A DNA stretch of 64,000 nucleotides from Promethearchaeota archaeon (GTDB lineage Archaea > Asgardarchaeota > Lokiarchaeia > Sigyniarchaeales > SOKP01), in assembly GCA_008080735.1 (NCBI GenBank), contig SHMW01000007.1:21315-85314 (forward strand), written 5' to 3'. Position numbers and translations under genes: made by a program. Positions 1,796 to 19,078 of the stretch are shown here, piece by piece (the first letter of the stretch is position 1; every line of letters begins with the position of its first letter). The notes beneath the pieces are model-generated. The model searched no databases. It was not told the DNA's origin and saw only the letters and a list, made by a program, of their open reading frames with translations.

Positions 1796-2740
1796 TTAAA
1801 ACTTTTCATTGAATCCATCAAATTGGTCTATTAATAAATCGGAATCTTTTCTATATAATACATTTAGCGCATAAGCCTGATTCGACAAATAGGTTTCTCC
1901 TAATAGTAGAGATACTCGTATATGATGGTCATTTTCACTAAATATTGGTACAATTGAATCCCATTTAGAAAAAAAGGAATAATTTTTGGTCAACTCTAAA
2001 GTTTTATCAAGAAGAACCATTTTTTTGGAATTTTTATCGATTTGAGTATCAATTAATTTCTGTTTTTGATTTTTAAAATAGGATTTTTTGAATAATTGGT
2101 ATCGTATACAAGACTCTTCGTTAATGTATTTGTAAATATAATAATCAAATGGATATAATCCGGGAATATATTTGGAATTCTTGGATAACTTGAATTTGAA
2201 TATAATTTTGGATACAAATTTATTGAGAAAATATATTGAATAGAACAACACAAAGCTGGGAAATAGATAAAAAAGTAATATGAAAGGATTTAAAAACCTA
2301 AAGAAAATTGAGACAATAAGAATACCTATTGAAATGAACATTAAGAAAGGATTTACCGCTCTATCAATGAAAAAGCGATATTTCTTCTTTGAAAAAGGAT
2401 ACACGATTGGAATCTTTGAGGCAGTGAGAAAATCAAAGAAAATATGGAGAAAATAAAATGCAGTCCCGATAATCCAAGTAGCAATTAAATCTGCTCCCAT
2501 TAGAAAAAAAAGAAATACACTAGGGAAGAATGAAATTAGAATAGCACCCACAATAGAATGAGAAACGCCTTTATGCGATAACAATTTAGAATTCCTAAAT
2601 TTGGGGATTATTTCAAGAAAAACATCCAAATCAGCTAAAATTGCCATAAATACCGCGTAGTAAAAAAAAACTATATCCATTCCTTTTAACAGATAACTAG
2701 CGAATAAAATAGCAATAATAAAGTGCGAAAAAAAGTCCAT
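1796..2740 (-). CDS. Membrane-bound metal-dependent hydrolase (YdjM-like)
   Basis: MDFFSH, DLD, HKGVSHS, HIFFDFLT motifs within hydrophobic helices. Confidence 0.8.
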   Translation of the reverse strand: MDFFSHFIIAILFASYLLKGMDIVFFYYAVFMAILADLDVFLEIIPKFRNSKLLSHKGVSHSIVGAILISFFPSVFLFFLMGADLIATWIIGTAFYFLHIFFDFLTASKIPIVYPFSKKKYRFFIDRAVNPFLMFISIGILIVSIFFRFLNPFILLFYLFPSFVLFYSIYFLNKFVSKIIFKFKLSKNSKYIPGLYPFDYYIYKYINEESCIRYQLFKKSYFKNQKQKLIDTQIDKNSKKMVLLDKTLELTKNYSFFSKWDSIVPIFSENDHHIRVSLLLGETYLSNQAYALNVLYRKDSDLLIDQFDGFNEKF

Positions 2741-2908: not shown

Positions 2909-3340
2909 TCAATATGAGATATCCCGGTCCTCTAAAAACGATTTAATTTTTTCTTCAAGTTCATCCCGTGCAGATCTAAATCGTTCAATTCTTTCTTCCT
3001 CAGAACCTTCAAATGCAGCGGGATCTTCAATATTCCAAAATAACCTCGTGCTCACTCCTGGCAGGGTGGGACATAATTTTTCAGCCTTTTGACATACGGT
3101 AATAACAATCCCGAAATGCTTCTCTCCTAAATATTGATCCAAATCTTTAGAGTAATGATCACTCATATCATATCCCTTTTCTTCCATAACTTTTTTAGTA
3201 AGAGGATGAATTTCCTTTGGCTCAAACCCCGCGCTGAATACATTGAAATAATCTCCAGCAAGTTTGTCCAAAATCGCTTCTGCCATCTGACTTCTTGCTT
3301 GATTATGAGTACATAAAAAAATTACACTCGGCTTTTTCAT
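2909..3340 (-). CDS. arsC: Arsenate reductase, LMW-PTP / thioredoxin-coupled type
   Basis: CTHNQARSQMAE P-loop, TVC..CP resolving pair, WNIEDP. Confidence 0.88.
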   Translation of the reverse strand: MKKPSVIFLCTHNQARSQMAEAILDKLAGDYFNVFSAGFEPKEIHPLTKKVMEEKGYDMSDHYSKDLDQYLGEKHFGIVITVCQKAEKLCPTLPGVSTRLFWNIEDPAAFEGSEEERIERFRSARDELEEKIKSFLEDRDISY

Positions 3341-3441
3341 AAATCAATCATCATTGAATTTAATTTAAAAATTACTTCTATATAATATATATTTTTAGGC
3401 GATTTACTCAATACAAAAATTTTTGAGGAGGCGATCCTCAT

Positions 3442-3477
3442 GTCGATCTCTTACTAAGATTTATTAAGAGATTTCAT
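3442..3477 (-). promoter_or_regulatory. Candidate SECIS element (eukaryote/Lokiarchaeal-like core)
   Basis: Minus strand ATGAA-ATCTCTTA-ATAAATCTTAG-TAAGAGAT-CGAC: UGAN/NGAN core, 8-bp perfect helix, AAA in the apical region. Starts 12 nt after the TAA of the read-through frame. Lower helix is weak. Confidence 0.5.
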
Positions 3478-3489
3478 TCATTTTTATTA

Positions 3490-3942
3490 TTAATCAAAAT
3501 AATGTCCAAAGTGTTCGTGGTTTTTTCCATATCTTTTATCTAAGCTATTTTTAAATTCAGCAATGTCTAACCTTTCCCGAATCTTTTCTCATCAACAACC
3601 AGGGTCAAGTTGAATATTAATGTCACTCTCTGGTATTAAGGAATAATCGGGATTTTCATGTAAAGGCATAAATTCTCTATTAGGGCCGTAGGCCATTATT
3701 CCCACATCATCATATATTTTATTGGTTTTCGGATTCCAGATTAATTGTAAATAGTTATAAATATATCCTTCGAAAATGGGGAAGATACAATCTTCTGGAT
3801 TATTTTTTATGTATTTGTCGACTTTAGCAATGGCTTCAGCTAGATTCGCATCGTCTTTAATTTGGACATTAAAAGATTTTCCTTGAGACAACCCACTATA
3901 GGGCATGCTTATACTAATTTTGATGGTTTTAAATTCAATCAC
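3490..3942 (-). CDS. MoaD/ThiS-like beta-grasp protein; putative selenoprotein with tandem UGA-UGA (GC-U-U), 150 aa if read through (116 aa to first TGA)
   Basis: GTG start 3942; ...CCT GGT TGT TGA TGA GAA AAG ATT..., then 32 open codons (EKIRERLDIAEFKNSLDKRYGKNHEHFGHYFD) to TAA TAA TAA; SECIS-like hairpin directly downstream. Confidence 0.55.
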
Positions 3943-4005
3943 CTTAAAGTTTCTTGGAATTCAAATAATTCTGTTTCTTTAACAAGTAAATAAAACTAAT
4001 TAAAA

Positions 4006-4431
4006 CTATTTGCTTGACCATAATTTGACCTTACTTTCTATTTGGTCACGTATTTTTCTAAAAAAAGCCAATTTTTCCTCCTCGGAGCCTTCAAACGCTG
4101 CGGGGTCTTCGAAAGGCCAATGTAATTCTTCTTGTACACCCAGAATAGTGGGGCAGGATTCTTTAGCACTCGAACAAACAGTAATAACAATATCAATATC
4201 AATTTTCTTCATTAATTCTCTTATATGCTTTGAGTTATGACCACTCCAATCGAATCCTGCCTCTTCGAGCACTTTTATAGTATATGGATGTATGGGATGC
4301 GGTTCTGTTCCTGCACTATAGGCATTATATCTATCATTTCCATATTTATTGATAAATGCTTCCGTCATTTGACTCCTGCATGAGTTCCCCGTACATACGA
4401 CTACTATATTTTTTTTACCCATTTGAATCAT
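4006..4431 (-). CDS. arsC: Arsenate reductase, thioredoxin-coupled type
   Basis: CTGNSCRSQM, TVCSSAKESCP, HWPFEDP. Confidence 0.93.
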   Translation of the reverse strand: MIQMGKKNIVVVCTGNSCRSQMTEAFINKYGNDRYNAYSAGTEPHPIHPYTIKVLEEAGFDWSGHNSKHIRELMKKIDIDIVITVCSSAKESCPTILGVQEELHWPFEDPAAFEGSEEEKLAFFRKIRDQIESKVKLWSSK

Positions 4432-4462
4432 CTCTCGTTGAATGTAATTTTGGGGGTATGTT

Positions 4463-4741
4463 TTAATTTATGAATCCTCTTTCCTTTAAAATCTTGGGTA
4501 ATTGTTTTTTTAAAGCATAAACTGAGGATATTTTTTTTTTTTCATCAATTATAATACATTTTTGAAATAATTTCATCTTCGCAGCTTTTTTGGAATGTAA
4601 TGATTTTGTATCGTGTTCAATATATTTTATATATGGTGTAAGGACTTCAAAAACGCGATTCATAAAATTTTCCCATTCACATGCACAAACTTGAAGCGGA
4701 ACATAAATATCTACTTTAACTTTTTCATTCTGGTTTGACAT
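4463..4741 (-). CDS. Small Cys-motif protein (CxC), possible thioredoxin-like/metal chaperone
   Basis: VDIYVPLQVCACEW strand-CxC-helix pattern; inside ars/hgc operon. Confidence 0.55.
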   Translation of the reverse strand: MSNQNEKVKVDIYVPLQVCACEWENFMNRVFEVLTPYIKYIEHDTKSLHSKKAAKMKLFQKCIIIDEKKKISSVYALKKQLPKILKERGFIN

Positions 4742-4768
4742 AAAAATCCTTCTTATGAATAATTAAAA

Positions 4769-5104
4769 TTAACAACAACATTCATTATTATTTTTCTTCG
4801 AACGTTTTCTAGCATCCCATAAGCACCCACACCCTTTTTGTTCTTGCATTATTATCGCGTGGGTTGGACAATTTCTCTCACATGCACTACATTCAGTACA
4901 TTTTTCAGGCTCACCGATATTATATGTCCCATCGTTTTCCTCTTTTAGAAGTCCAAATGGGCATATCTCCTCACACAAACCGCAACCGATACATTTTGAG
5001 GGATCTATAGCTATCTTTAAGTTTAAATTCTTCAAAAAACCTTCAATAACACTGCTAGAGTCACAACAGCTATTGTTTTTTTCTAATTTTGTCATTTTTC
5101 TCAA
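4769..5104 (-). CDS. hgcB: HgcB-like 2[4Fe-4S] ferredoxin
   Basis: CIGCGLCEEICP and CTECSACERNCP, GCGC, C-terminal CCC; directly downstream of HgcA-like gene. Confidence 0.8.
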   Translation of the reverse strand: MRKMTKLEKNNSCCDSSSVIEGFLKNLNLKIAIDPSKCIGCGLCEEICPFGLLKEENDGTYNIGEPEKCTECSACERNCPTHAIIMQEQKGCGCLWDARKRSKKNNNECCC

Positions 5105-5121
5105 AACATTATAGATTCTTA

Positions 5122-6786
5122 TTATAATATTATTATACTCAAAAGGGTAAGAAATAACCCAACACAGAGTAAAATGTAATTTAATTTTTTAAATAATGGA
5201 TATTCATTTCTAATTTCTCTTGGGTTTGTTGACATAGTATATCCGCTAAAAGACATTGTAGTGAAGAATCCAATCCATAGAAAAAAGATTAAATTTAGAA
5301 TAACGTAGTATAACGAAAAACTAAGAAACCACGTAACTATTCCAAGGGAAATTGTATTAATAATACCAAAAAACATACTTTTTAGAACAAAATTACGCGT
5401 AAAGTTAGAGAGAGGGTAAAGGAGAATTAATAAAAGATTTGGAAAGAGTATCCAAATTAAAAGATCGGCAGCCATCCAAGTTTTATTGATGATATTCGCA
5501 AGATCTAGGGCAAAAAGGATAAAAAATAGAATAATTAATGGAAGAAGAAATATTTTTCTCAAAAGAAATGTCGTATGTGTTATTCCCGCAGGAATCCGAT
5601 GTCGGAAAGTAAATTTGGCTCTCTTCATTTGCTTAGACTTCTTCTTTGGTTTTTTAATAAGGTATTCCTTCAAGTACCGTGACCATACTGGACCATATTC
5701 AATCTTAAATGGAAATATTTCTGAATGCTCTGGTAAATTGGGTTTTGAAAGCCCTCCGGCAGAAAGCTGGGGTAAAATGATAGTATTATTGTCAGTAATA
5801 TGTTTCACGCCTGTCGCTTCAACCGCTTCAAGTAATTGTTCATTACCAAAATCATCTCCTCTCGCAGCACACCAGACATTAATACCATTAGAGTCAATAC
5901 ATAATATCCATGCATCAATACCTTCTAAATCTCTCATAACTTTAATAAAAGTATATGCATAATTAGCAGTTGCAATAATCGGAGAATAATTATTTGGATT
6001 ACCCGATTTATATAATCCAGGTTCAATCGGAACATTATCAACCTGACCTGTCAATAGGCATCTCCAAATTTTTAGTTGTGATGAAATACCTTTTATTTTT
6101 GGTTTTTCTGGTTTATAATAACCCGGTTCATTCTTTTCTTCTTCAAATGATTTTTCTAATTCTATAGCTTGAATTGATCCGTGAGTCCATTTTTTTATGT
6201 CGGCTATTTTGAAACCAATCGGTTCTAAATAATCTTCAAAATACTCTAAAGGATTAGTTCTCTCAAGTTTTAATCTTCTTAATTTTTTATTATATAACCA
6301 CCTTTTCACCCAGAATGGAACCTTCCAAACTCCAGAGGGAATAAACTCTGCTGCAATTATTAATCGACCATCAGATTTTAATGCTTTCCACGCATTACGA
6401 AGAAAGATTTGTTGTTCCAACGGTCTTAGTTCTGATAACATAAAGGTACTAATGATTAAATCCTGAGAATCCTCTGGAACTTTCAAATCTTTAATTGTAC
6501 CAATTTGATATAGCAAATCTATATTATCTTTTTTTGGCATATTTTTCAAAGCATAGCTAATCATCTGATAATTTTCATCAAGAGCTCTGACTTTAGCGCC
6601 TTTTAACGCAATCTTTAAAGCCAAAATCCCAGTGCCGCACCCAACTTCTAAAACAGATTGATCATATTCAATCTTTTCTAAGATCCAGTTCTGAATTTTA
6701 ATATTTACTCCTTTTGTGAGATTAGTAAACTTTGAATCGTAATTTGCAGGTTCCTGCTCCAATTTTTGCATGTAAGTAACAGCCAT
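5122..6786 (-). CDS. Class I SAM methyltransferase fused to HgcA-like corrinoid-binding and transmembrane domains
   Basis: N-term VLEVGCGTG. Middle PIEPGLY..SPIIATANY..DAWILCIDSNGINVWCAARG..ILPQLSA..YGPVW. C-term TM helices with TMSFSGYT..TNPREIRNEY. Confidence 0.88.
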   Translation of the reverse strand: MAVTYMQKLEQEPANYDSKFTNLTKGVNIKIQNWILEKIEYDQSVLEVGCGTGILALKIALKGAKVRALDENYQMISYALKNMPKKDNIDLLYQIGTIKDLKVPEDSQDLIISTFMLSELRPLEQQIFLRNAWKALKSDGRLIIAAEFIPSGVWKVPFWVKRWLYNKKLRRLKLERTNPLEYFEDYLEPIGFKIADIKKWTHGSIQAIELEKSFEEEKNEPGYYKPEKPKIKGISSQLKIWRCLLTGQVDNVPIEPGLYKSGNPNNYSPIIATANYAYTFIKVMRDLEGIDAWILCIDSNGINVWCAARGDDFGNEQLLEAVEATGVKHITDNNTIILPQLSAGGLSKPNLPEHSEIFPFKIEYGPVWSRYLKEYLIKKPKKKSKQMKRAKFTFRHRIPAGITHTTFLLRKIFLLPLIILFFILFALDLANIINKTWMAADLLIWILFPNLLLILLYPLSNFTRNFVLKSMFFGIINTISLGIVTWFLSFSLYYVILNLIFFLWIGFFTTMSFSGYTMSTNPREIRNEYPLFKKLNYILLCVGLFLTLLSIIIL

Positions 6787-6810
6787 TTAAACCTCTCTGA
6801 TGTATCTAAA

Positions 6811-7875
6811 TTATTTTTTATTTATCCTCCAAAAGCCTTTTCTTCCGAGGAATTTCCCTATATATACAATGGAGAGCATTATTGGAATCTCCCAAAAAAG
6901 CCCCATAGTTGTCCCAAGGGCAGCTATGCTTCCAACCCCGTATAATCCCACTGCAGTTGCGATTGCAATTTCAAAATGCGACGATGAACCTATTATTACG
7001 CTGATTATCGCCTCCTTATAAGCGAAGCCCAGAATTTTCGTAACCATGATGTTGTATAAGACAACGATAAAAAATCCCACCAACAAGGGGATAGAAACGA
7101 TGACCATTAATTGGGGATTGTTCAATAATACTTCTCCATTTAAGGAAAACAGAATAATTAATGTTGTCAATAAGGCTACGATAGAGATCTTTCCTACAGC
7201 AGGTTTATAGGTATTTTGAAACCAACTTTCACCTTTCGATTTTATTAAAAATTTTCGTGAAAGAATGCCTATTAAAAGTGGAAGTCCAATGAAAACTATT
7301 CCAGAAATTAGAAGTTGAGTCCAATCAATAGGGATATTCTGTATTCCCGTCAATAAAGACACCATAGGTACATATCCAATTATTATTGTAATCGTGTTTA
7401 TGCTAGTTGTCAATACATTCTGTTCTTGATTTCCTTTTGCCATCCAACCCCAAACTAGGACCATCGCGGTACATGGAGAACTGGATAAAAGAATTATTGC
7501 AACAATGAGCTGCTGATCCACTAAAAAAATGTTAGCCATTGCCAATCCGACAAATGGGGCAATTAACCAATTTGAAACTAACGTGGCGATGACGGGTTTT
7601 GGATCTCTTCCTATCTGTTTTAATTCTGAGTATTGAAAATTTAACATCGCAGGATACATCATCAAAAATAAGCAAATGCCTATAGGAATTGAGATCCCAC
7701 CTATTTTGATTGATTCGATGAATTCTCCTATTCCTGAAACCACTTGAGAAAGTAAAATCCCAATGAATATACATAGAGCAACCCACGCAGGAAGAAACTT
7801 TTCAAAATAGCCAAGTTTTTTTTCTCTTTCTTTTAGCTCTTCCTCAATAGTTACTGAATTTCTTTTTTCAGACAT
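6811..7875 (-). CDS. acr3: Arsenite efflux transporter Acr3
   Basis: LFLMMYP, SNWLIAP, SPCTAMVLVW, SSSHFEIAIA; about 10 TM segments. Confidence 0.95.
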   Translation of the reverse strand: MSEKRNSVTIEEELKEREKKLGYFEKFLPAWVALCIFIGILLSQVVSGIGEFIESIKIGGISIPIGICLFLMMYPAMLNFQYSELKQIGRDPKPVIATLVSNWLIAPFVGLAMANIFLVDQQLIVAIILLSSSPCTAMVLVWGWMAKGNQEQNVLTTSINTITIIIGYVPMVSLLTGIQNIPIDWTQLLISGIVFIGLPLLIGILSRKFLIKSKGESWFQNTYKPAVGKISIVALLTTLIILFSLNGEVLLNNPQLMVIVSIPLLVGFFIVVLYNIMVTKILGFAYKEAIISVIIGSSSHFEIAIATAVGLYGVGSIAALGTTMGLFWEIPIMLSIVYIGKFLGRKGFWRINKK

Positions 7876-8094
7876 AATTTTTTCAGATTTTCGATATATA
7901 TTTTCTGTTTATGAGTTTCATATTAGGTGAATTTATGCTCAGATTTAAATCTATCGATTTGAAATACTTGAGAAACTATAATGTTGAATATTTTAATCTA
8001 TGGTACTTATTCAAGAATAGTAAGAGCTAAGGTTAAAAAATACTCCATTATCAAACAGCAATTGAGGGAAAACGATCTATTGATAATAGGATTC

Positions 8095-8880
8095 TTATTC
8101 TAAATGAGAATGTGGAGATCCGAGAGGAACCAATGTATAATCGCCTCCAGATTCAAGTAAACCTTTTTTAAGGAGTTCTTCACAGAAGGGATTACCATAA
8201 AGATTTATATACAAATTTTTATTATGAATATAAGGGAGGATATCATCAGGGTTTGCGAGGAGATTACTTGAGAGTTCGACGGTGAGAAGATTTGGATGGC
8301 TAGTAAGATCGGGAAGCCGAGTTATTTGATTATTGAAGAGTAAAAGCTCATATAAATCAGGGAGAGAATAAATTTCACGAATTTTATCTATCTTATTACA
8401 ATTTATAGAGAGAGATCTTAGCTTTTTCAGTTTTTCAAGTCCTTCCATTTTAATAATATTATTCCAACCTAATGAAAGTCCTTCTAAATTTATATTTTTT
8501 TCTAACCCTTGAATAGTTCTAACTTGATTTAATTGGAGGGATAATCTTTTCAGTTTTGTTAGATTTTCGAGTCCTTTAATTTTAGAGATCTTATTTCTTC
8601 CTAAATTAAGAACTACAAGATTTTTGAGATGATTGATTCCTTTAATCTCACTGATTTGATTGTTACATAAACTTAGATATCTTAAGTTAGAAAGATATTT
8701 AATTCCTTGGATTTTAGATAACTTGCATCCAGAAATATCAATTCTTTTTAATTCAGTTAGACTTTCAAGCCCTTTTATTTCTGTAATATCTTTAAGTGTC
8801 GGAGAATTATTTATTATTAGTGAATTATTGCTAACATAGAATTTTTGACCATCAAACTCTACACACTGATTTTCTGTCAT
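8095..8880 (-). CDS. Leucine-rich repeat protein (SDS22-like)
   Basis: Repeated LxxLxLxxNxIxxIxGL units. Confidence 0.92.
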   Translation of the reverse strand: MTENQCVEFDGQKFYVSNNSLIINNSPTLKDITEIKGLESLTELKRIDISGCKLSKIQGIKYLSNLRYLSLCNNQISEIKGINHLKNLVVLNLGRNKISKIKGLENLTKLKRLSLQLNQVRTIQGLEKNINLEGLSLGWNNIIKMEGLEKLKKLRSLSINCNKIDKIREIYSLPDLYELLLFNNQITRLPDLTSHPNLLTVELSSNLLANPDDILPYIHNKNLYINLYGNPFCEELLKKGLLESGGDYTLVPLGSPHSHLE

Positions 8881-8985
8881 TTTATATTAAAAGAAAGAAA
8901 AATGTGTATTTAAAAATACTCTCTGTGGAATTTTTTAATTTATGATTGCTCGATTATATTGAATAATCAGAAAAAAAATCTCTGT

Positions 8986-9429
8986 TTAATTCTTAATTAT
9001 AGAGACCCCACCATAAATTGCTGCATAGGTGCCTAAAAAGGACATAATTTGCATTAATGTCGCTATCGCCATTAAACTCATAAATTTAATAATCGTTTGC
9101 TGAGAAGGTTCAACTTTTTTTATGTCTTTACATTCATATCCTCCTACTTTAGAAATCACCCAGTTCATCGAGGCAGCACAGCAATCAATCGCATTATTTA
9201 AATTATATTCCAAAGTGTTGAAAAATTTATATTGGGGAGAGTTAGGATTTGTCCAATGTTCTCTCCATCCATCTTTTGTTGTAGCAGCCGAAAAGAAAGT
9301 GTCACGAGCAACCTTAAATGTTAGAGTCTCTGGATTCCAAAATTTAGTATTTAATAGATTAGGTAATATTTTTTGAGAAGGAATATTAGCGAAAAAGTAT
9401 AAAAATCGAAAATTTGTGATATTCTTCTT
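8986..9429 (-). pseudogene. Probable 5'-truncated gene remnant or gene with non-standard start
   Basis: The frame of the 75-aa ORF stays open upstream to 9429 (..KFWNPETLTFKVARDTFFSAATTKDGWREHWTNPNSPQYKFF..) with no ATG/GTG/TTG before 9213; hydrophobic C-terminus. Confidence 0.35.
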
Positions 9430-9594
9430 TTATCAAAATTTTGTGTGATTTGAAATCTTTAAAATATTCTCCTAAAATTTATCGATTCGGATTCATCATG
9501 GTCAATCTGAAATCTATAATTACTTTATAACACTATATTGATATAGAGAAAGGAATATTGGTGATTTAATATAGATAGAGAAAGAAAAAAAGAA

Positions 9595-9984
9595 GTGATG
9601 AATACTTTAGAGAGTTGCGTGGATATGGAGGGTGTTAATATGGTCCAATATTTTAATGAATTGAGGGAATTAGGAAAATCTATTCAAAAAAATAAAAAGT
9701 TTAGAGAAGTCTTGGACTTCTGCAACACTCTGGGCAATGAAGAACGTTTAAAAATCGTTGAGAGTCTTAAAAAGCAAGACCATTGTGTATGCGAATTAGA
9801 GGTTATTTTAGACAAATCTCAACCAACCATTTCCCATCACTTACGGGAACTGGAAAAGATTGGACTCATACGAGGCTGGAAAAAAGGAAAATTTACTCAT
9901 TATGATATTGTTGATGAGAAAATGGAGCATTATATAAGTTTATTGACATCACGTTTTAAAGAGAAGGGAAAATCCTCTAATTAA
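9595..9984 (+). CDS. arsR: ArsR/SmtB family metalloregulator
   Basis: LGNEERLKIV, HCVCELEVIL, SQPTISHHLRELEKIGLI; CVC As(III)-type site; divergent from the acr3 operon. Confidence 0.88.
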   Translation: MMNTLESCVDMEGVNMVQYFNELRELGKSIQKNKKFREVLDFCNTLGNEERLKIVESLKKQDHCVCELEVILDKSQPTISHHLRELEKIGLIRGWKKGKFTHYDIVDEKMEHYISLLTSRFKEKGKSSN

Positions 9985-13147: not shown

Positions 13148-14413
13148 ATGAACGATTTTAACCGCAAAAAGAATTTAATAAAGTTTCTGAATATAATCAA
13201 CCCATCAGAAATTAATATTAAGAAGGAAGAGATATTTTATCGGGAAAAGTATAAAGAAATCATTAATTATTTGAAGTTAATTTTAACGGAATCCAAGGAT
13301 TTGGAAATTTATAATTATGTTAACCCAAAAGGATTAGTATTAATTCACGCTCATCCAGGAATTGATTTATTAGATTATCTAAAATTAATTTGTTCAAACT
13401 TTTATATTCATTGCGTACAATTTAAAGAATCTGAAATTGCCGAAAATCCTAAGGAATTTTTAGAGGATTTTACTAGTATTTTTAACTATTTTGATGAGAT
13501 TCTAATAGAAGAATCGGGCAAACAGAGTAAGGATAAAAATCAAAAGGAAGATAATTCAAAAGAAATTAATAATCAAAAACTACTAATAGTGAATCAAAAC
13601 CAGCGTTTGGAACAGCTTGTAGGGGTTAATAATTTGCTCCAGAAGTTCTTGTTTTATTATCAAGAAGAGGATAATTTAACTAAAATAATAAAAAATAATC
13701 TGGTAATCATATGGGTTATTTATAATTATGAAGGCATTTTAAACGTTTCAGACCAAATTTACAAAGTGTTTGATTTTATAATTAGAGTTCCGATATTAAA
13801 TAAGATGGAGCGACAACAGGTTTTTAGGGAATTCATGGAAAAGAATCCAAAAATCTCATTTGATATTAATAAACTTGTTGAATTGACAGAAGAATGGGAA
13901 GTTGAGGAGATTAATCATTTACTTAGAACGGGGATCTTAAAGCATCATATAAATGCCGATTTGAATACAACTAGCAATGAAATCACGGATATCATTATAG
14001 ATTTAGTGGAGTCCAGAGAATTTATTCCATATGGTAAAAAACACCTTGAAAAGAACAAAAAAGAACAAAAAAGCATCCCAGAAGGATCTTCTACAGAGAA
14101 AAACATAACAGAACGAGACTTGAAAGAACACATACCGATAGAGTCAAAAGAAGAGATTCTTAATCAAATTAAATCTGAAAATTATTCTGAGTTTATGCTC
14201 AACCAATTATATGAAAACGCTGCTTCGGAAAATTATAATGAATTGGTTTTGATTATTGATAAATTAGACAAAAAAGAACCTTTGGAAGATAACGATAGGA
14301 AATTACTGTCGAAATATCCATTTATATTAAATAATTCTCCATCCCGAGCCCAAATATTTCTCGAGAAAGCAAAAAAAAGAATTGATATGATTACCAAATC
14401 ATTCGGAAAATAA
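13148..14413 (+). CDS. Degenerate (likely inactive) AAA+ ATPase-like protein
   Basis: NPKGLVLIHAHPGIDLL aligns with classic PKGVLLYGPPGTGKT but lacks GKT; VFDFIIRVPILNKMERQQVF..DINKLVELTEEW resembles the AAA lid. Confidence 0.6.
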   Translation: MNDFNRKKNLIKFLNIINPSEINIKKEEIFYREKYKEIINYLKLILTESKDLEIYNYVNPKGLVLIHAHPGIDLLDYLKLICSNFYIHCVQFKESEIAENPKEFLEDFTSIFNYFDEILIEESGKQSKDKNQKEDNSKEINNQKLLIVNQNQRLEQLVGVNNLLQKFLFYYQEEDNLTKIIKNNLVIIWVIYNYEGILNVSDQIYKVFDFIIRVPILNKMERQQVFREFMEKNPKISFDINKLVELTEEWEVEEINHLLRTGILKHHINADLNTTSNEITDIIIDLVESREFIPYGKKHLEKNKKEQKSIPEGSSTEKNITERDLKEHIPIESKEEILNQIKSENYSEFMLNQLYENAASENYNELVLIIDKLDKKEPLEDNDRKLLSKYPFILNNSPSRAQIFLEKAKKRIDMITKSFGK

Positions 14414-14431
14414 GATAAGAGTAGATATTAA

Positions 14432-17400
14432 ATGAGTGATAATTCTAAAGAGACCATGGAAATAGGGAGGAAAAATCCATTGGAGAGACCAGTTCATATC
14501 CAGAAAGTCATTTTAGAAAACTTTCTCTCATTTAAAAAAGATGAAGTAAATATTGGAGATAATAAATTTATTATTATAATCGGACCAAATTGGAGCGGTA
14601 AGACATCAATATTTCAAGGAATAAAATTTGCGCTCGGAAGTAATGAGCGAGGAGAACGTTACCCCAAATGGTCAGATTTTATACGCCATGGACAAGACCA
14701 TACGATGGTTGAGATACATATTTTAGATAATTCTAACTTATTAAAAATCAGAAGAACTGTTGTAAAAGGTCATTCTCCGTTTTTCGAATTGAAAACACCT
14801 AAAGATAAAGAATTTAGAAAAGTTAAAGCCAGTGAAATTCAAGAGATCGTTTCAGAGCTACATTATAATCCTGATAATCAATTTGCGTTTGTGAGTCAAG
14901 GAAAGATCGATGCTATCAAGGATCTCAAACCTACTGAACTTTGTACTTTTCTTGAAGAAGGAATCGGATTGATTGGATTAAGAAAGGAAATTTTACAAAA
15001 AAAGGATGATATCGAGATTCTAAATTCAGAATTATTATCTCTAAACACAAAAAAGAATTCTTTAAATATCAATTTAGAGCTCTTGAGGCCAAAATTAGAA
15101 AGATTAGAGGAGAAAAAGAAGCTAGAGAAGAGAAAACGAAACTTTGAGGATGAGTTGTTATGGGCGAACCGTCAAAAATTATTATTGGAAATTGTGGATC
15201 TAACAGATGAGGTTAAAAAACTAAATTCTATGATACATACGGTTGAGACTCAAAAGCAAGAAAACCTCGAAGAAGCTGAATCATTATCAAAAGAAATTGA
15301 ACAAATAGAGGACGAAATTAATAAAATATCAAAAGAACTTGGGCAAAATGAATATCGTAAACAAGATTTAGTAGGGAAAATTAAGAGATGGCAGAAAGCA
15401 AAGGTTCAAATGAAAGAAGAACTGGACAGAATTTCTGAAAAAAGAAAAATTCAAGAAAAAAAGCTAGAAAACCTTCAAAAACAGAAAGTAAGCATTCACA
15501 GCAATTTATCTGCGGTAGATAAAGAGGTTTCTGATATTGAAGAGAAAATTGAAGAATTAATTAAAGAACAAGCGGAATTATCAGATAAAATCGAGGAAAA
15601 TAAAGTATTTTTAGAACAATATAATCAATTAGCCTCTGAAATAAAGCAAAAAGAAAGACAAATTGAAAAGAATAGAACTATAATACAAGATCTTGATAGC
15701 CAAATTAATCAACTGTTTCAAAGTTTCAAAGATATCAAACATAAACTGGATAAAAACAAATGGTTTTTAGAAAATCCAACTAAAAATTTATTAAAAGAGC
15801 TTGATGTAAAATTAGAAAAAACTTCATCGAGATTATTCGCTATTGAAGAGGAATTAAAGAAATTAGAACATGAAAAATCACGGAAAATTAATGAATTTAA
15901 GCGTTTGAGAGGATCCTTGGACGAAAGGAGAATTGTATTGCCAACGAATATAAATATTCTGAAAGATGAAATCAGAAAAAGAGATTTGGCTGTTAAGGGG
16001 CCTATTATTGAATATATTAAATATGATGATAAATTAAGTTATGCAATTGAATCTGTATTAGGGGAAAAGCTCCTATATAGTTTTGTTGCCTCCGATTGGG
16101 ACACATTAGATCTTTTAAAGAGGTTAAAAGAAAAATATAAAGCCTATTGTAATATCTATGTTCCTAAATCAGCAAATATTCACCCTTTAAGAACTTTTGA
16201 AGCCGAAGGGGCTGTTGGATATTTAGCAGAACTTATAAAAACCAATGATATTGAGATCAAAAAGGTAATTTACTCTAAAGTTAAAAATTGCTTGGTGGTG
16301 AAAGACTACAGAAGCGGGAAAGATATGTATAAGAAATATAATTTCAAAGGGAAATGTGTCACGCTTAAGGGAGAACAGATTATTTCATATAAATATGTCT
16401 ATGAGACTCCATATCGTAAACAATTAAAAGGATTATTGAGCGCAGGAACTCAAAAGGAGCAAGCAGATAAGTTAGAAAATCAGATAAAGCGTCTTACAGA
16501 TAATATTTCAGATTTAAAAGTGCAAGCATCAAAATTGGACAATATCCAAAAAGATATTTACAATAAAAAGCGTGCATTCAATGACCTCCTCTACAATTTT
16601 AACCAGAAACAGAGAATCACTTCAAAGAAAAACCAATTATATGAACAAAAGGCGAATTTAGAAGAACTAAACACTCAACTTTCTAAAGAGATTGATATTC
16701 TTAAAACTGAATTGAAAGAATTAGAAAAAGAAAAATCTCCCGATTTCTTCAAATGGAACGAACGTTTAAACAAAATACCTAACCAATTAAAAGATTTGAA
16801 TAAGGAAAAGAAAGAATGGAACAAAAAACTTGCCGAAAGTAGGGAAATATATTCTGCTGTTGACGCGAAAATAAGTAAGGTCGATAGCAAAATAGAACTC
16901 TTGAGTACAGAGTTTGAGACTAAGCAAGAAAACTTCCAAAAGGCGGATAAAGAAGCGTTTGAGATCTATCGGGAATTAGATGATGTTGAAACAAACATCA
17001 ATGAACTTAATGAGAAGATTTACAACTTAAAAGAAAAAAGAAAAGAGAAACTAGCGGACAAATCAATTTTAGATAAGAAAAGAATTGAATTAGAGTTAAA
17101 AATTGAACAAGAAACCATAAACTTAAAACATACTAAACAAGAACTTAATTCTAGAAATGAAGACTTGGCGCGTGTCGATAGGGAAATTGGTGGAGAGAAA
17201 AAGGAGGAGGAAATCGAAACACGACCCGTTCAAGAAATTAAAGACGACATCTTCCAAATAGACAAAGAATTATTGAAATATTATGATGTAGATGATTCTA
17301 TCTTAGTGGAGCGCGACCAAATTATGTCATCACTTAAGAAAATCGCAAAGAATCAGAAAGATTTGGAAAATGATATCAATGCTGCAAAAGATACGGAAAA

Positions 17401-17893
17401 TAAGTTAGAAAGTACCTATTATCGAAAGTTTGAGTCCGTCTTAGAGGAATTGGAATCAAAAATCAATTATAAATTTGAGGCATCTGAGATTAATGTCTAT
17501 TGTGCCTTAGAACTCATCGGAAATTTTGAAGAATTGGGAGTCGATATAAAAGCGGCGACTTCGAATAAACCTCTAATATCATGTACTGCTTTGAGCGGAG
17601 GGCAAGTCTCGATGGTATCCATCGCATTAATATTATCACTTCAAGAAATGCGACCATCACCCTTATGCATGTTTGACGAGGCTGCGATGTTTTTGGATGA
17701 TAAAAACGCCGAAATTACATATGAACTAATAAAATCGACCTTAGAACACAATCCTATTCAAATGATTATGTTTCTTCCCAAATCTTCTAATGCGTTATAT
17801 AAATTAGCTGAGCAATTAATTGGAGTCGCTCGAGTGGGAAAGGAAGAAGTATCAACAATATTTAAACCTAAAATAGTTGAACATAAAGGCTGA
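14432..17893 (+). CDS. SMC-family ATPase, Smc5/6-like
   Basis: LENFLSF, GPNWSGKTS, Q-loop PDNQFAFVSQGKI, long coiled coils, hinge VKGPIIEYIKYDDKLSYAIESVLG, LSGGQ, SPLCMFDEAAMFLD. Confidence 0.9.
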   Translation: MSDNSKETMEIGRKNPLERPVHIQKVILENFLSFKKDEVNIGDNKFIIIIGPNWSGKTSIFQGIKFALGSNERGERYPKWSDFIRHGQDHTMVEIHILDNSNLLKIRRTVVKGHSPFFELKTPKDKEFRKVKASEIQEIVSELHYNPDNQFAFVSQGKIDAIKDLKPTELCTFLEEGIGLIGLRKEILQKKDDIEILNSELLSLNTKKNSLNINLELLRPKLERLEEKKKLEKRKRNFEDELLWANRQKLLLEIVDLTDEVKKLNSMIHTVETQKQENLEEAESLSKEIEQIEDEINKISKELGQNEYRKQDLVGKIKRWQKAKVQMKEELDRISEKRKIQEKKLENLQKQKVSIHSNLSAVDKEVSDIEEKIEELIKEQAELSDKIEENKVFLEQYNQLASEIKQKERQIEKNRTIIQDLDSQINQLFQSFKDIKHKLDKNKWFLENPTKNLLKELDVKLEKTSSRLFAIEEELKKLEHEKSRKINEFKRLRGSLDERRIVLPTNINILKDEIRKRDLAVKGPIIEYIKYDDKLSYAIESVLGEKLLYSFVASDWDTLDLLKRLKEKYKAYCNIYVPKSANIHPLRTFEAEGAVGYLAELIKTNDIEIKKVIYSKVKNCLVVKDYRSGKDMYKKYNFKGKCVTLKGEQIISYKYVYETPYRKQLKGLLSAGTQKEQADKLENQIKRLTDNISDLKVQASKLDNIQKDIYNKKRAFNDLLYNFNQKQRITSKKNQLYEQKANLEELNTQLSKEIDILKTELKELEKEKSPDFFKWNERLNKIPNQLKDLNKEKKEWNKKLAESREIYSAVDAKISKVDSKIELLSTEFETKQENFQKADKEAFEIYRELDDVETNINELNEKIYNLKEKRKEKLADKSILDKKRIELELKIEQETINLKHTKQELNSRNEDLARVDREIGGEKKEEEIETRPVQEIKDDIFQIDKELLKYYDVDDSILVERDQIMSSLKKIAKNQKDLENDINAAKDTENKLESTYYRKFESVLEELESKINYKFEASEINVYCALELIGNFEELGVDIKAATSNKPLISCTALSGGQVSMVSIALILSLQEMRPSPLCMFDEAAMFLDDKNAEITYELIKSTLEHNPIQMIMFLPKSSNALYKLAEQLIGVARVGKEEVSTIFKPKIVEHKG

Positions 17894-18552
17894 TGATGAA
17901 AAATATCGACTTTTCAGAGGATATACGAAACAAGATTAGGGGGATTTTTGATAAGGTCCATTCAGGCGAGATTTCTTTACTTAATTATGAATTAGTCCCG
18001 ATTTTTCAAGAATTAAAAGATTCTCTGAATACTTCAAATCTGAATAATTATTCCAAGACCTATGTGGAAGCATGTAATCTTCTCGATAAAAAATTTGAAG
18101 AATTAAAAGAATTACTATACTCATTGGATGAGGAGAAAAAGTTTACAGAATACCTCGAATCAGAACCATCCGATAGTGAAATTTCAGCATTATTTACAGA
18201 TTGTTGGATAAAAACGTTTCATTCTCCGATCTTATCATATAATTTTCTTGAGGAAAGTAAGGATAGATTAATACGAGAAAGAACTTCTCCATTGGTAATT
18301 GAGCATTTACAAGCAGAGAAATCTAATGAGAAATTCATCTTAGAATTACCTAAGCACAAATTTACCGAAAAGATGATGAATTTTTTTGATGCTATTAAAG
18401 ATAAATTACCGTGTTCTTTCTATGAGGTTTTTGAGGAGGAAACCAACCAATTAGAATTATATAAACAGTTTGTCTATCTCTTGCATCTTCTTCAGATAGG
18501 AAAGATTCAATATCAAATGGAGACTAACACACTCTATTTAGGAGGCGTATAA
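17893..18552 (+). CDS. Kleisin-like (ScpA/Nse4-like) subunit
   Basis: TGATG coupling to SMC; C-terminal FYEVF..QFVYLLHLLQIGKIQYQ resembles the kleisin C-terminal winged helix. Confidence 0.65.
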   Translation: MMKNIDFSEDIRNKIRGIFDKVHSGEISLLNYELVPIFQELKDSLNTSNLNNYSKTYVEACNLLDKKFEELKELLYSLDEEKKFTEYLESEPSDSEISALFTDCWIKTFHSPILSYNFLEESKDRLIRERTSPLVIEHLQAEKSNEKFILELPKHKFTEKMMNFFDAIKDKLPCSFYEVFEEETNQLELYKQFVYLLHLLQIGKIQYQMETNTLYLGGV

Positions 18553-18553
18553 T

Positions 18554-19078
18554 ATGAATGAGTTTTCTATATTGATGAATCTCCTTAGTAATAGGATTAG
18601 TAAAAATCAAATAGGTGCCACCAAGCAAGAACTTATGGAAGCTCTAAATTTGAGAAAAGATAAGGATGCATATTATTTTCAAGAATTGCTTTCGCAATTA
18701 TCGAATTATATCGAGCCCCTAGGACTTTATGTTCGGTTCAATCCAGTGGATCATCACTGGTTTATATCCCATGATTTTAAAACCTCTAACCTATTGTCAG
18801 CGAATCCATTTCAAGATAAACCGAAATTAGCTGCAACTTTATTCTGTGTTTTGGTTGCATGCTTGAAAAGCTCGGGTTCCGCGAAAGTAAAGGATATAAA
18901 GGAGTTGCGGAAAAAAAAGGGGGTACTCCGTGATTTAAAGAAATTAGAAGAGGAGGGATATATTTTACTTGACGATGAAGAAAAGCAAGTTATATTAACG
19001 CCATTAATCGGATATCAATTAGATATTCAAAAATTATTTGTTAAGCTCTCTCTCAAATTAAAAGAGGAAAAGGAATAA
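18554..19078 (+). CDS. KITE-like tandem winged-helix subunit (ScpB/Nse1/Nse3/MksE-like)
   Basis: Two WH-like halves (ATKQELMEAL..IEPLGLYVRF; LFCVLVACLKSSG..LKKLEEEGYILL..VILTPL); 1 nt after the kleisin-like gene. Confidence 0.6.
   Translation: MNEFSILMNLLSNRISKNQIGATKQELMEALNLRKDKDAYYFQELLSQLSNYIEPLGLYVRFNPVDHHWFISHDFKTSNLLSANPFQDKPKLAATLFCVLVACLKSSGSAKVKDIKELRKKKGVLRDLKKLEEEGYILLDDEEKQVILTPLIGYQLDIQKLFVKLSLKLKEEKE

Follow-up and report, generated by a model that had tools for sequence, protein, structure and literature searches.

What would a relative of the mercury methylase HgcAB do in the middle of an arsenic operon? The question is raised by a stretch of 64,000 nucleotides from a Promethearchaeota archaeon (GenBank assembly GCA_008080735.1, contig SHMW01000007.1, positions 21,315 to 85,314), hereafter called the window. 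On its minus strand, from 7875 down to 2909, are found in succession the genes for the arsenite permease ACR3 (acr3), a fusion of an S-adenosylmethionine (SAM) methyltransferase (MT) with an HgcA-like corrinoid domain, an HgcB-like ferredoxin, a small CxC protein, an arsenate reductase (arsC), a protein with two TGA codons in frame after Gly-Cys, and a second ArsC (Table 1). The existence of HgcAB-type proteins is a puzzle of mercury biogeochemistry. To our knowledge, mercury methylation has no known benefit to the cell, and a link between HgcAB and arsenic has so far only been hinted at in one bacterium. The present analysis points, with a confidence that falls a little short of probable, to an ArsR-controlled arsenic operon whose corrinoid module would methylate As(III) bound to thiols or selenols.

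A corrinoid module within an arsenic operon

The gene set and its order had been proposed by an initial sequence-only reading of the window. The whole series was recovered on one strand, with intergenic gaps of 24, 17, 27, 31 and 63 nt between acr3 and the gene carrying the TGA pair, a selenoprotein gene described below. The permease scores marginally under the cut-off of its family (282.8 bits) but has both the PCTAMV and the HFE signatures, the Cys and the Glu of which are essential residues. For both ArsC proteins, TIGR02691 is the best family, with 138.3 and 115.1 bits, under the cut-off of 174.3, and a CX5R loop and a C-X6-C pair can be read in both translations. The second arsC is preceded by 149 nt that hold a selenocysteine insertion sequence (SECIS) and a hairpin with a T-run. 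For this reason it may belong to a separate transcript; it is found at the same position in several relatives. The hairpin and T-run were flagged by a bacterial sigma-70 promoter scan, of which only this output was used, since the consensus is bacterial and the host an archaeon.

The source metagenome-assembled genome (4.1 Mb, 33.6% GC, 93% completeness) contains a single acr3, as judged by a single tblastn match, and a single HgcA-like gene. The initial reading had remarked that the cluster has no stand-alone arsM; none was found there, nor in the rest of this genome, where the top score with the ArsM model NF008823 is 60 bits for a cut-off of 263. The nearest relatives of the window proteins all belong to Promethearchaeota (Loki-type) and other Asgard archaea.

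A divergent arsR of the CVC type had also been claimed. Such a gene, with an HCVCE motif read from its translation, does lie on the plus strand, but it is parted from acr3 by a leucine-rich-repeat (LRR) protein gene and a 0.7-kb spacer. The LRR gene is probably an insertion outside the operon promoter, and not a member of the system, because relatives carry a DUF166 gene or nothing at this place and because the candidate operator sits beside acr3, with the LRR gene beyond it. The operator corresponds to an inverted repeat, TTCAAAT-N12-ATTTGAA, which encloses a TATA-like TTTWWAT element and is common to relatives upstream of the first operon gene, be it DUF166, acr3 or the fusion. In one group of relatives both arms show matched changes (TCACAT...ATGTGA), and the window copy is the sole match in 64 kb. 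Judged from its sequence and position, this candidate site is consistent with the divergent ArsR repressing the operon as a whole. Most of the related loci have a divergent ArsR, and a divergent or co-oriented ArsR gene is present at many loci, some of them without acr3. Gene content and common operator together bear out the proposal that an arsenic operon encloses a corrinoid/SAM methyl-transfer module.

The fusion protein and its HgcB-like partner

The N-terminal part of the fusion (residues 4-211) has as best family CpaM (NF043040, 'corrinoid protein-associated methyltransferase'), with 140.6 bits and an E-value of 4.6e-41 for a cut-off of 180. The C-terminal part (residues 248-550) matches positions 24-322 of the 325 of the HgcA model NF040863 with 168.9 bits (cut-off 275), and NF043039, the model of HgcAB-like fusions, gives the protein an equal score (168.4 bits, cut-off 285). 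This part also matches PF03599 (E 2.2e-13), and its best relative of solved structure in the PDB is the gamma subunit of CFeSP, which has a Thr at the cap-helix position where the fusion has a Cys. Hydrophobic segments occupy residues 402-554, the C-terminal third of the protein. The ferredoxin encoded by the next gene scores 55.9 bits with the HgcB model (cut-off 99) and has two CX2CX2CX3C motifs and a terminal CCC; among its 64 homologues the eight cluster Cys are conserved, GCGC is kept in 91% and the terminal Cys pair in 72-86%.

A first possibility is that the pair is a true HgcAB that methylates mercury and happens to be under ArsR control, like that of some bacteria. Among named families HgcA and HgcB give the highest scores, and the pair shares with the canonical proteins a CFeSP-derived corrinoid domain, a cap-helix Cys ligand, a C-terminal membrane domain and, in the ferredoxin, a terminal pair of Cys. 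ArsR-linked hgcAB genes are known in bacteria: those of P. mercurii ND132 are ArsR-regulated and arsenic-responsive, and they affect As(V) sensitivity (bioRxiv 10.1101/2022.10.17.512643). Several features make this possibility very unlikely. The scores of both proteins are far too low for the equivalog cut-offs: 169 bits where 275 are required, and 56 where 99 are required. The cap helix of the fusion reads GINVWCAARGDDFG, with WCAARG where canonical HgcA has WCAAGK: Cys306 is present, but the GK of the N(V/I)WCA(A/G)GK motif is absent. The corresponding GINVWCAA.G..F motif, Cys306 included, is invariant across 62 homologues, as are G49, G51, G53 and D70 of the SAM site. Motifs and architectures were surveyed in the 150 best representatives drawn from 1.8 billion proteins. 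WCA(A/G)GK was present in 71 of them, all stand-alone proteins of about 350 aa, whereas GK was absent from all 31 fused forms (20 MT-HgcA, 8 MT-HgcA-HgcB and 3 HgcA-HgcB). A tree of 65 HgcA domains, computed with FastTree, a quick method, and without outgroup, separates the stand-alone GK forms from the MT- or HgcB-fused forms with a Shimodaira-Hasegawa (SH)-like support of 100. The window protein falls with the fused forms, whose clade of 37 rows unites all three types of fusion. This split agrees with the two HgcA clades described by Lin et al. (PMC10083202). According to the account of Podar 2015 given in PMC10083202, the fused HgcAB of P. furiosus, a member of the same second clade, did not methylate mercury. 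Finally, no mer genes were seen, and acr3 and arsC indicate arsenic.

From its score under the cut-off, its GK-less cap helix and its place in the fused clade, the fusion is HgcA-like in architecture and stands outside the canonical mercury-methylase family. Hence, of the identification as HgcA made by the initial reading, the corrinoid and membrane domains stand, and the canonical identity gives way to a place in the HgcAB-like/CpaM clade. Unlike canonical HgcA, the fusion begins with a SAM methyltransferase domain and so should bring its own methyl donor, and it is encoded within an acr3/arsC operon.

A close parallel is the system formed by CpaM and the HgcAB-like fusion (NF043040, NF043039; PMC10083202), which has no assigned function. 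The same three modules, the same GK-less Cys cap helix and the same major clade are found in both. The window differs in the point of fusion, which joins the methyltransferase to HgcA and leaves HgcB to a gene of its own 17 nt further downstream. It differs also in context, the module being surrounded by the acr3, arsC, CxC and Cys-Sec-Sec genes of an ars operon.

Other arrangements of the three modules were also observed. Metagenomic proteins of 580-644 aa combine MT, HgcA-like and HgcB-like domains in one chain (P0159, P0162, P0164, P0166, P0170, P0174, P0181 and P0231), so that the modules are found joined in every possible combination. In two Asgard loci, L069 (G007:C9) and L070 (G262:C14), the CpaM-like gene stands apart and precedes an HgcA-HgcB fusion, and genome G262 has both arrangements, CpaM-like with HgcA-HgcB and MT-HgcA with HgcB. 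No ars genes were seen beside three non-Asgard fused forms, which are on short contigs or lack DNA and are thus uninformative.

Like ArsM and AS3MT (NF008823), the MT domain would be a SAM-dependent enzyme of the class I fold, encoded in an ArsR-controlled ars operon, and its proposed product would be a methylarsenical. It differs from ArsM by the lack of As(III)-binding Cys: no conserved Cys triad of the ArsM type was found across the 62 homologues, and the sole conserved Cys of the domain sits in the SAM-binding GCGTG motif. The MT domain was also considered as an ArsM, and this was ruled out by its low score (35.8 bits for a cut-off of 263) and the missing triad. Since this triad is lacking, the domain is more likely to methylate the corrinoid than to methylate arsenic directly, and methyl transfer would pass through cobalamin.

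An orphan thioredoxin-fold protein

The 92-residue CxC protein has no family match in Pfam or NCBIfam, and its homologues, found in Asgard archaea only, are all annotated 'hypothetical'. The AlphaFold2 model, with a mean predicted local distance difference test (pLDDT) of 92.6, has a beta-alpha-beta-alpha-beta-beta-alpha topology. Its top structural matches are thioredoxins, with template modelling (TM) scores of 0.55-0.67. C19, C21 and W23 are invariant, and the CxC motif would lie at the N-terminus of helix 1; several homologues also have N-terminal Cys-rich CC..CC..CC tracts. An analogy may be drawn with ArsD, a thioredoxin-fold protein whose vicinal Cys bind As(III) and which supplies an efflux system. 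No similarity to ArsD was detected by sequence, and ArsD, with its Cys12-Cys13-Cys18, is not among the top folds. From its modelled fold and its motif, the protein is a candidate As(III) carrier or redox partner.

A beta-grasp selenoprotein with adjacent selenocysteines

The gene with the TGA pair had been taken, in the initial reading, for a selenoprotein gene. In 14 of 14 loci, from several genera, TGA-TGA follows a Gly-Cys, and the next 32-37 residues are conserved (EKVKERLDIG.FK..IRKKYGK.NEYFAHYF), whereas the database entries all end at GC. Twelve nucleotides past the true stop lies a conserved SECIS with an AUGA, a 9-bp stem, an A-rich loop of 11 nt, a GA and a short lower stem. An alignment of 15 such elements has 89% of its cells paired, with seven pairs changed on both sides, and none of 500 shuffles matches this result. 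Slid controls collapse, and RNAalifold recovers the same stems. A covariance model of the element (R1) finds three further matches in the genome, all 3' of hdrA/mvhD loci with an in-frame TGA (G000 C42:13512-13574, C87:7158-7213 and C49:17352-17407, with the motifs CDGUG, KUGY and GU..EC). The tail conserved at 14 loci, the covarying SECIS and the matches at hdrA/mvhD uphold the initial proposal, and the case for a genuine selenoprotein, drawn from this comparison of sequences, is strong. A tandem stop after a ubiquitin-like protein ending in GC was considered and ruled out, because the peptide encoded downstream is conserved, a SECIS follows and the tail is modelled with a confident fold.

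Right after the SECIS, a second small hairpin (about 3424-3440 of the window, minus strand; AGGA-loop-UCCU) with covarying closing pairs is kept in 14 relatives. The window copy, which precedes a T-run, was flagged as terminator-like; the hairpin may belong to the SECIS or may act as a terminator.

The AlphaFold model consists of a beta-grasp domain and two helices (pLDDT 87.5, predicted TM score 0.85). Structural comparison places it closest to the beta domain of transcobalamin and to CysO, SAMP and MoaD, which are sulfur carriers (Z-scores of about 7); these matches amount to an assignment of the fold only. In the model, the Cys-Sec-Sec (CUU) tail exits the fold where sulfur carriers bear their reactive tail. 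The carriers of the MoaD/ThiS/CysO/SAMP type, in which this tail leaves the last strand, may thus offer an analogy (Z 6-7.2 to CysO, SAMP1 and MoaD). Unlike the C-terminal GG of the carriers, the CUU tail is internal and is followed by two helices, and a Z-score of about 7 means a common fold only.

The known Asgard selenoproteins with eukaryote-like SECIS are SelD, FrhA/VhuU, FrhD/MvhD, HdrA, Prx-like, AhpF-N-like and DsbA-like proteins (PMC4989117, PMC11227280). The CUU protein shares with them a kink-turn SECIS in the 3' untranslated region, with its AUGA...GA core and A-rich loop, and the R1 model links it to hdrA and mvhD. It differs from them by two adjacent selenocysteines (three in the paralogues with Sec-Gly-Sec-Sec, or UGUU), by its beta-grasp fold and by its place in an arsenic operon, and no homologue with Cys in place of Sec was found among the matches. 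The family has no entry in Pfam or NCBIfam, and it is not one of the seven selenoprotein families that PMC11227280 lists for Asgard archaea.

Paralogues with Sec-Gly-Sec-Sec (three TGA in four codons) or Asp-Sec-Sec were noted in other loci (L042:11623-12069, L045:11414-11854 and L027:11937-12300); L045 has two copies in tandem. The same locus (L045:12500-12852, genome G155, of the same family) shows a third SECIS of this type after a short open reading frame (ORF), MTLKYYSNINCPDC..., with four in-frame TGA, including a U-A-U motif, and CxxC pairs. This ORF, absent from the window, may be a further small Cys/Sec-rich selenoprotein of the ars cluster.

A possible route of arsenic methylation

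Considering the properties of these proteins, a pathway may be envisaged. ArsC would reduce arsenate, As(V), to As(III), which would be captured on vicinal thiol or selenol sites, namely the CxC motif, the CUU tail and the Cys tails of HgcB, and then either be exported by ACR3 or handed to the fusion. The MT domain would draw on SAM to methylate a cob(I)alamin lodged beneath the cap helix with Cys306. From the resulting Cys-ligated methylcobalamin, the methyl group would pass to the metalloid in the manner of the HgcA model, and HgcB would re-reduce the cobalt to Co(I). The product would be a methylated arsenical able to leave the cell. Vicinal Cys or Sec are present in every small partner (CxC, CC tails, CUU, UGUU).

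Such a scheme would amount to a second, ArsM-independent mode of arsenic methylation, going from a SAM methyltransferase through Cys-ligated cobalamin to As(III) on a Cys-Sec-Sec beta-grasp carrier; in this precise form it is put forward as a rather doubtful proposal. Chemical precedent exists, since methylcobalamin and thiols methylate arsenite non-enzymatically, and the reaction is also seen in methanogen extracts. The literature search returned no paper that connects hgcAB with arsenic methylation through a corrinoid, nothing under 'CpaM', and no paper describing a corrinoid module within an ars operon.

The broader interpretation, an ArsR-controlled arsenic operon with a methylating corrinoid module, finds support in the parts identified by family models and motifs, the operon-tight gaps, the sole acr3, the sole HgcA-like gene and the lack of ArsM in the genome, the order kept in at least seven genera and the shared operator. 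The conserved Cys306, SAM-site glycines and HgcB Cys tails, the selenoprotein and the arsenic response of hgcAB in ND132 speak for it as well.

Conservation of the neighbourhood and the substrate of the module

The fusion was searched for in genomes across the phylum, and 60 species-level loci were taken, onto which the window proteins were mapped. Most genomes of the same family encode the fusion at full length, and so do members of several further Asgard families; HgcB follows the fusion in every complete locus. Within the clade of more than 40% identity, acr3 is immediately upstream of the fusion in 19 of 38 loci, from seven genera and two families; it is so in none of the 26 loci of two distant clades. 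The order arsR<>(DUF166)-acr3-fusion-hgcB-CxC-CUU is kept in at least seven genera, with identities between fusions down to about 50%. It had been expected that gene order would be conserved in Asgard relatives: this holds for those genera, but in half of the closer loci and in all the sampled distant ones the fusion-HgcB pair stands outside an ars context. The acr3-linked state fills one clade of the fusion tree, where about six changes are needed. The likely history, as read from this tree, is one origin followed by at least four to five losses, with a linkage that is old and retained and not repeatedly regained.

A number of observations weigh against the proposed reading. No ars gene accompanies the fusion-HgcB pair in 18 of the 38 closer loci, nor in any of the 26 sampled distant ones, and therefore its core function need not be arsenic. 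Shared ancestry explains part of the conservation of the acr3 linkage. In one lineage the gene of a bona fide ArsM (347 bits) separates acr3 from the fusion, and another lineage has an ArsM upstream of DUF166-fusion-hgcB. Its presence in the same operon in two lineages argues against a simple replacement of ArsM by the module, although it also reinforces the arsenic theme. The family scores of the fusion and of HgcB are all under the curated cut-offs. No ArsP-type exporter was seen, and methylarsenite is more toxic than arsenite. Finally, neither ARAGORN nor the Rfam model RF01852 found a tRNA-Sec in the 93%-complete assembly, only ordinary tRNAs. This absence is treated as due to the unassembled 7% or to a tRNA too divergent for the models, because SepSecS (491.5 bits, over its cut-off), a SelD gene with an in-frame TGA and the hdrA/mvhD selenoprotein genes are present; a PSTK-like gene was also found, under its cut-off (178.6 bits).

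It may thus be imagined that the corrinoid module acts on a substrate other than arsenic (Sb, Se, Te, Hg, a thiol or another acceptor) and that it joined an ars promoter in one Asgard clade. In such a model, the CxC and CUU proteins would serve ACR3 and ArsC only, either as ArsD-like As(III) chaperones or as a redox relay of the GCUG (thioredoxin reductase) type. The fusion-HgcB pair is indeed the universal unit, often far from ars genes; in other relatives its neighbours are a MarR regulator, an ArsR with an EamA transporter, or unrelated genes. CxC and CUU track acr3, being found only in acr3-linked loci and not with the fusion alone. The single likely origin of this linkage and the ArsM encoded alongside the fusion point in the same direction, and no native role is known for HgcAB-type proteins themselves (Gionfriddo et al., bioRxiv 10.1101/2022.10.17.512643; Lin et al., PMC10083202). 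Yet the module stands in mid-operon, between acr3 and arsC, with gaps of 17-31 nt, and the arrangement has been retained down to about 50% protein identity. Even at loci that lack acr3, the pair is found with ArsR-type regulators and this operator, and no neighbour points to an alternative substrate. On balance, we regard this alternative as serious but somewhat unlikely.

A further model would reverse the direction of the reaction: an anaerobic methylarsenical demethylase would hand the methyl group to the corrinoid and so free As(III) for ACR3, or else the module would have a regulatory role or merely be co-located, without coupling. Corrinoid proteins are methyl acceptors in anaerobic demethylations, the C-As lyase ArsI needs oxygen, and ACR3 exports the inorganic trivalent form only. 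An accidental association would be consistent with the wider synteny, with a structural-maintenance-of-chromosomes (SMC)-type operon upstream and a YdjM gene downstream, which shows vertical inheritance of the region. However, the fused SAM methyltransferase fits the donation of a methyl group to cobalt and not its acceptance. Reversal and accident alike sit poorly with the tight gaps, the common operator and a module kept inside the operon across genera, and both are considered improbable.

Surroundings of the operon

The YdjM-family gene trails the cluster in most acr3-linked relatives, and its membership in the system is uncertain. The SMC-type operon lies near arsR, at 13148-19078 in the window and at L013:721-5410 and L015:1-3371 in distant relatives. 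As it and YdjM accompany the cluster in relatives, the whole region is syntenic. Many relatives have a DUF166 gene between arsR and acr3 (for example L013:6155-6898 and L015:5227-5973), with weak similarity to NCBIfam NF041372, 'DUF166 family (seleno)protein DfsP'. The homologue of the window genome is found elsewhere, on contig C65, and the LRR gene holds that slot in the window.

Table 1. Genes and sites of the arsenic cluster and its flanks; positions are counted from the first nucleotide of the window.
Feature	Position	Strand	Match or remark
arsR, ArsR/SmtB-family repressor, HCVCE (R773-type CVC) As(III) site	9595..9984	+	PF01022 E 1.4e-15; NF033788 74.6 bits (cut-off 55)
Leucine-rich-repeat protein gene, between arsR and acr3	8095..8880	-	PF12799 E 5e-27
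Candidate ArsR operator, TTCAAAT-N12-ATCTGA, over TATA box	7939..7963	-	64 nt upstream of acr3 start
acr3, ACR3 arsenite efflux permease	6811..7875	-	TIGR00832 275.6 bits, E 5.8e-82; PCTAMV residue 134, HFE residue 300
MT::HgcA-like fusion, whole gene	5122..6786	-	554 aa
Fusion, N-terminal class I SAM methyltransferase domain, CpaM-like, residues 1-215	6142..6786	-	NF043040
Fusion, HgcA-like corrinoid-binding and C-terminal membrane domain, residues 240-554	5122..6069	-	NF040863, NF043039, PF03599
HgcB-like 2x[4Fe-4S] ferredoxin; N-terminal CC, GCGC motif, C-terminal CCC	4769..5104	-	NF040864, best NCBIfam match
CxC protein, 92 aa, orphan, predicted thioredoxin fold	4463..4741	-	Predicted fold; no family match
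arsC, thioredoxin-coupled (low-molecular-weight-phosphatase type) arsenate reductase	4006..4431	-	TIGR02691 E 1.7e-40; PF01451
Beta-grasp selenoprotein gene, 150 aa, Gly-Cys-Sec-Sec and two-helix tail (predicted)	3490..3942	-	UGA at 3592-3594 and 3589-3591
Asgard (eukaryote-like) SECIS	3423..3482	-	Kink turn with AUGA...GA core; upper stem of 9 bp; apical loop rich in A
Second arsC, thioredoxin-coupled type, sharing 50% identity with the other copy	2909..3340	-	TIGR02691 E 2.5e-33
YdjM-family membrane hydrolase, downstream neighbour	1796..2740	-	PF04307 E 4.9e-15; gap 168 nt

Concluding remarks

The operon adds to the archaeal repertoire a family of selenoproteins with adjacent Sec, lacking in the published Asgard catalogues and in curated libraries, as well as an orphan thioredoxin-fold CxC family. 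We know of no dedicated enzyme for the methylcobalamin-driven methylation of arsenic in methanogen extracts. An HgcA-like protein of the sister clade, with its own SAM donor, amid the sole arsenic operon of a genome without ArsM makes cobalamin-dependent arsenic methylation in anaerobes a testable idea. If true in the form that has As(III) presented on the Cys-Sec-Sec tail, it would reveal the type of native substrate of the HgcAB-like superfamily and provide the first selenoprotein chaperone of a metalloid.

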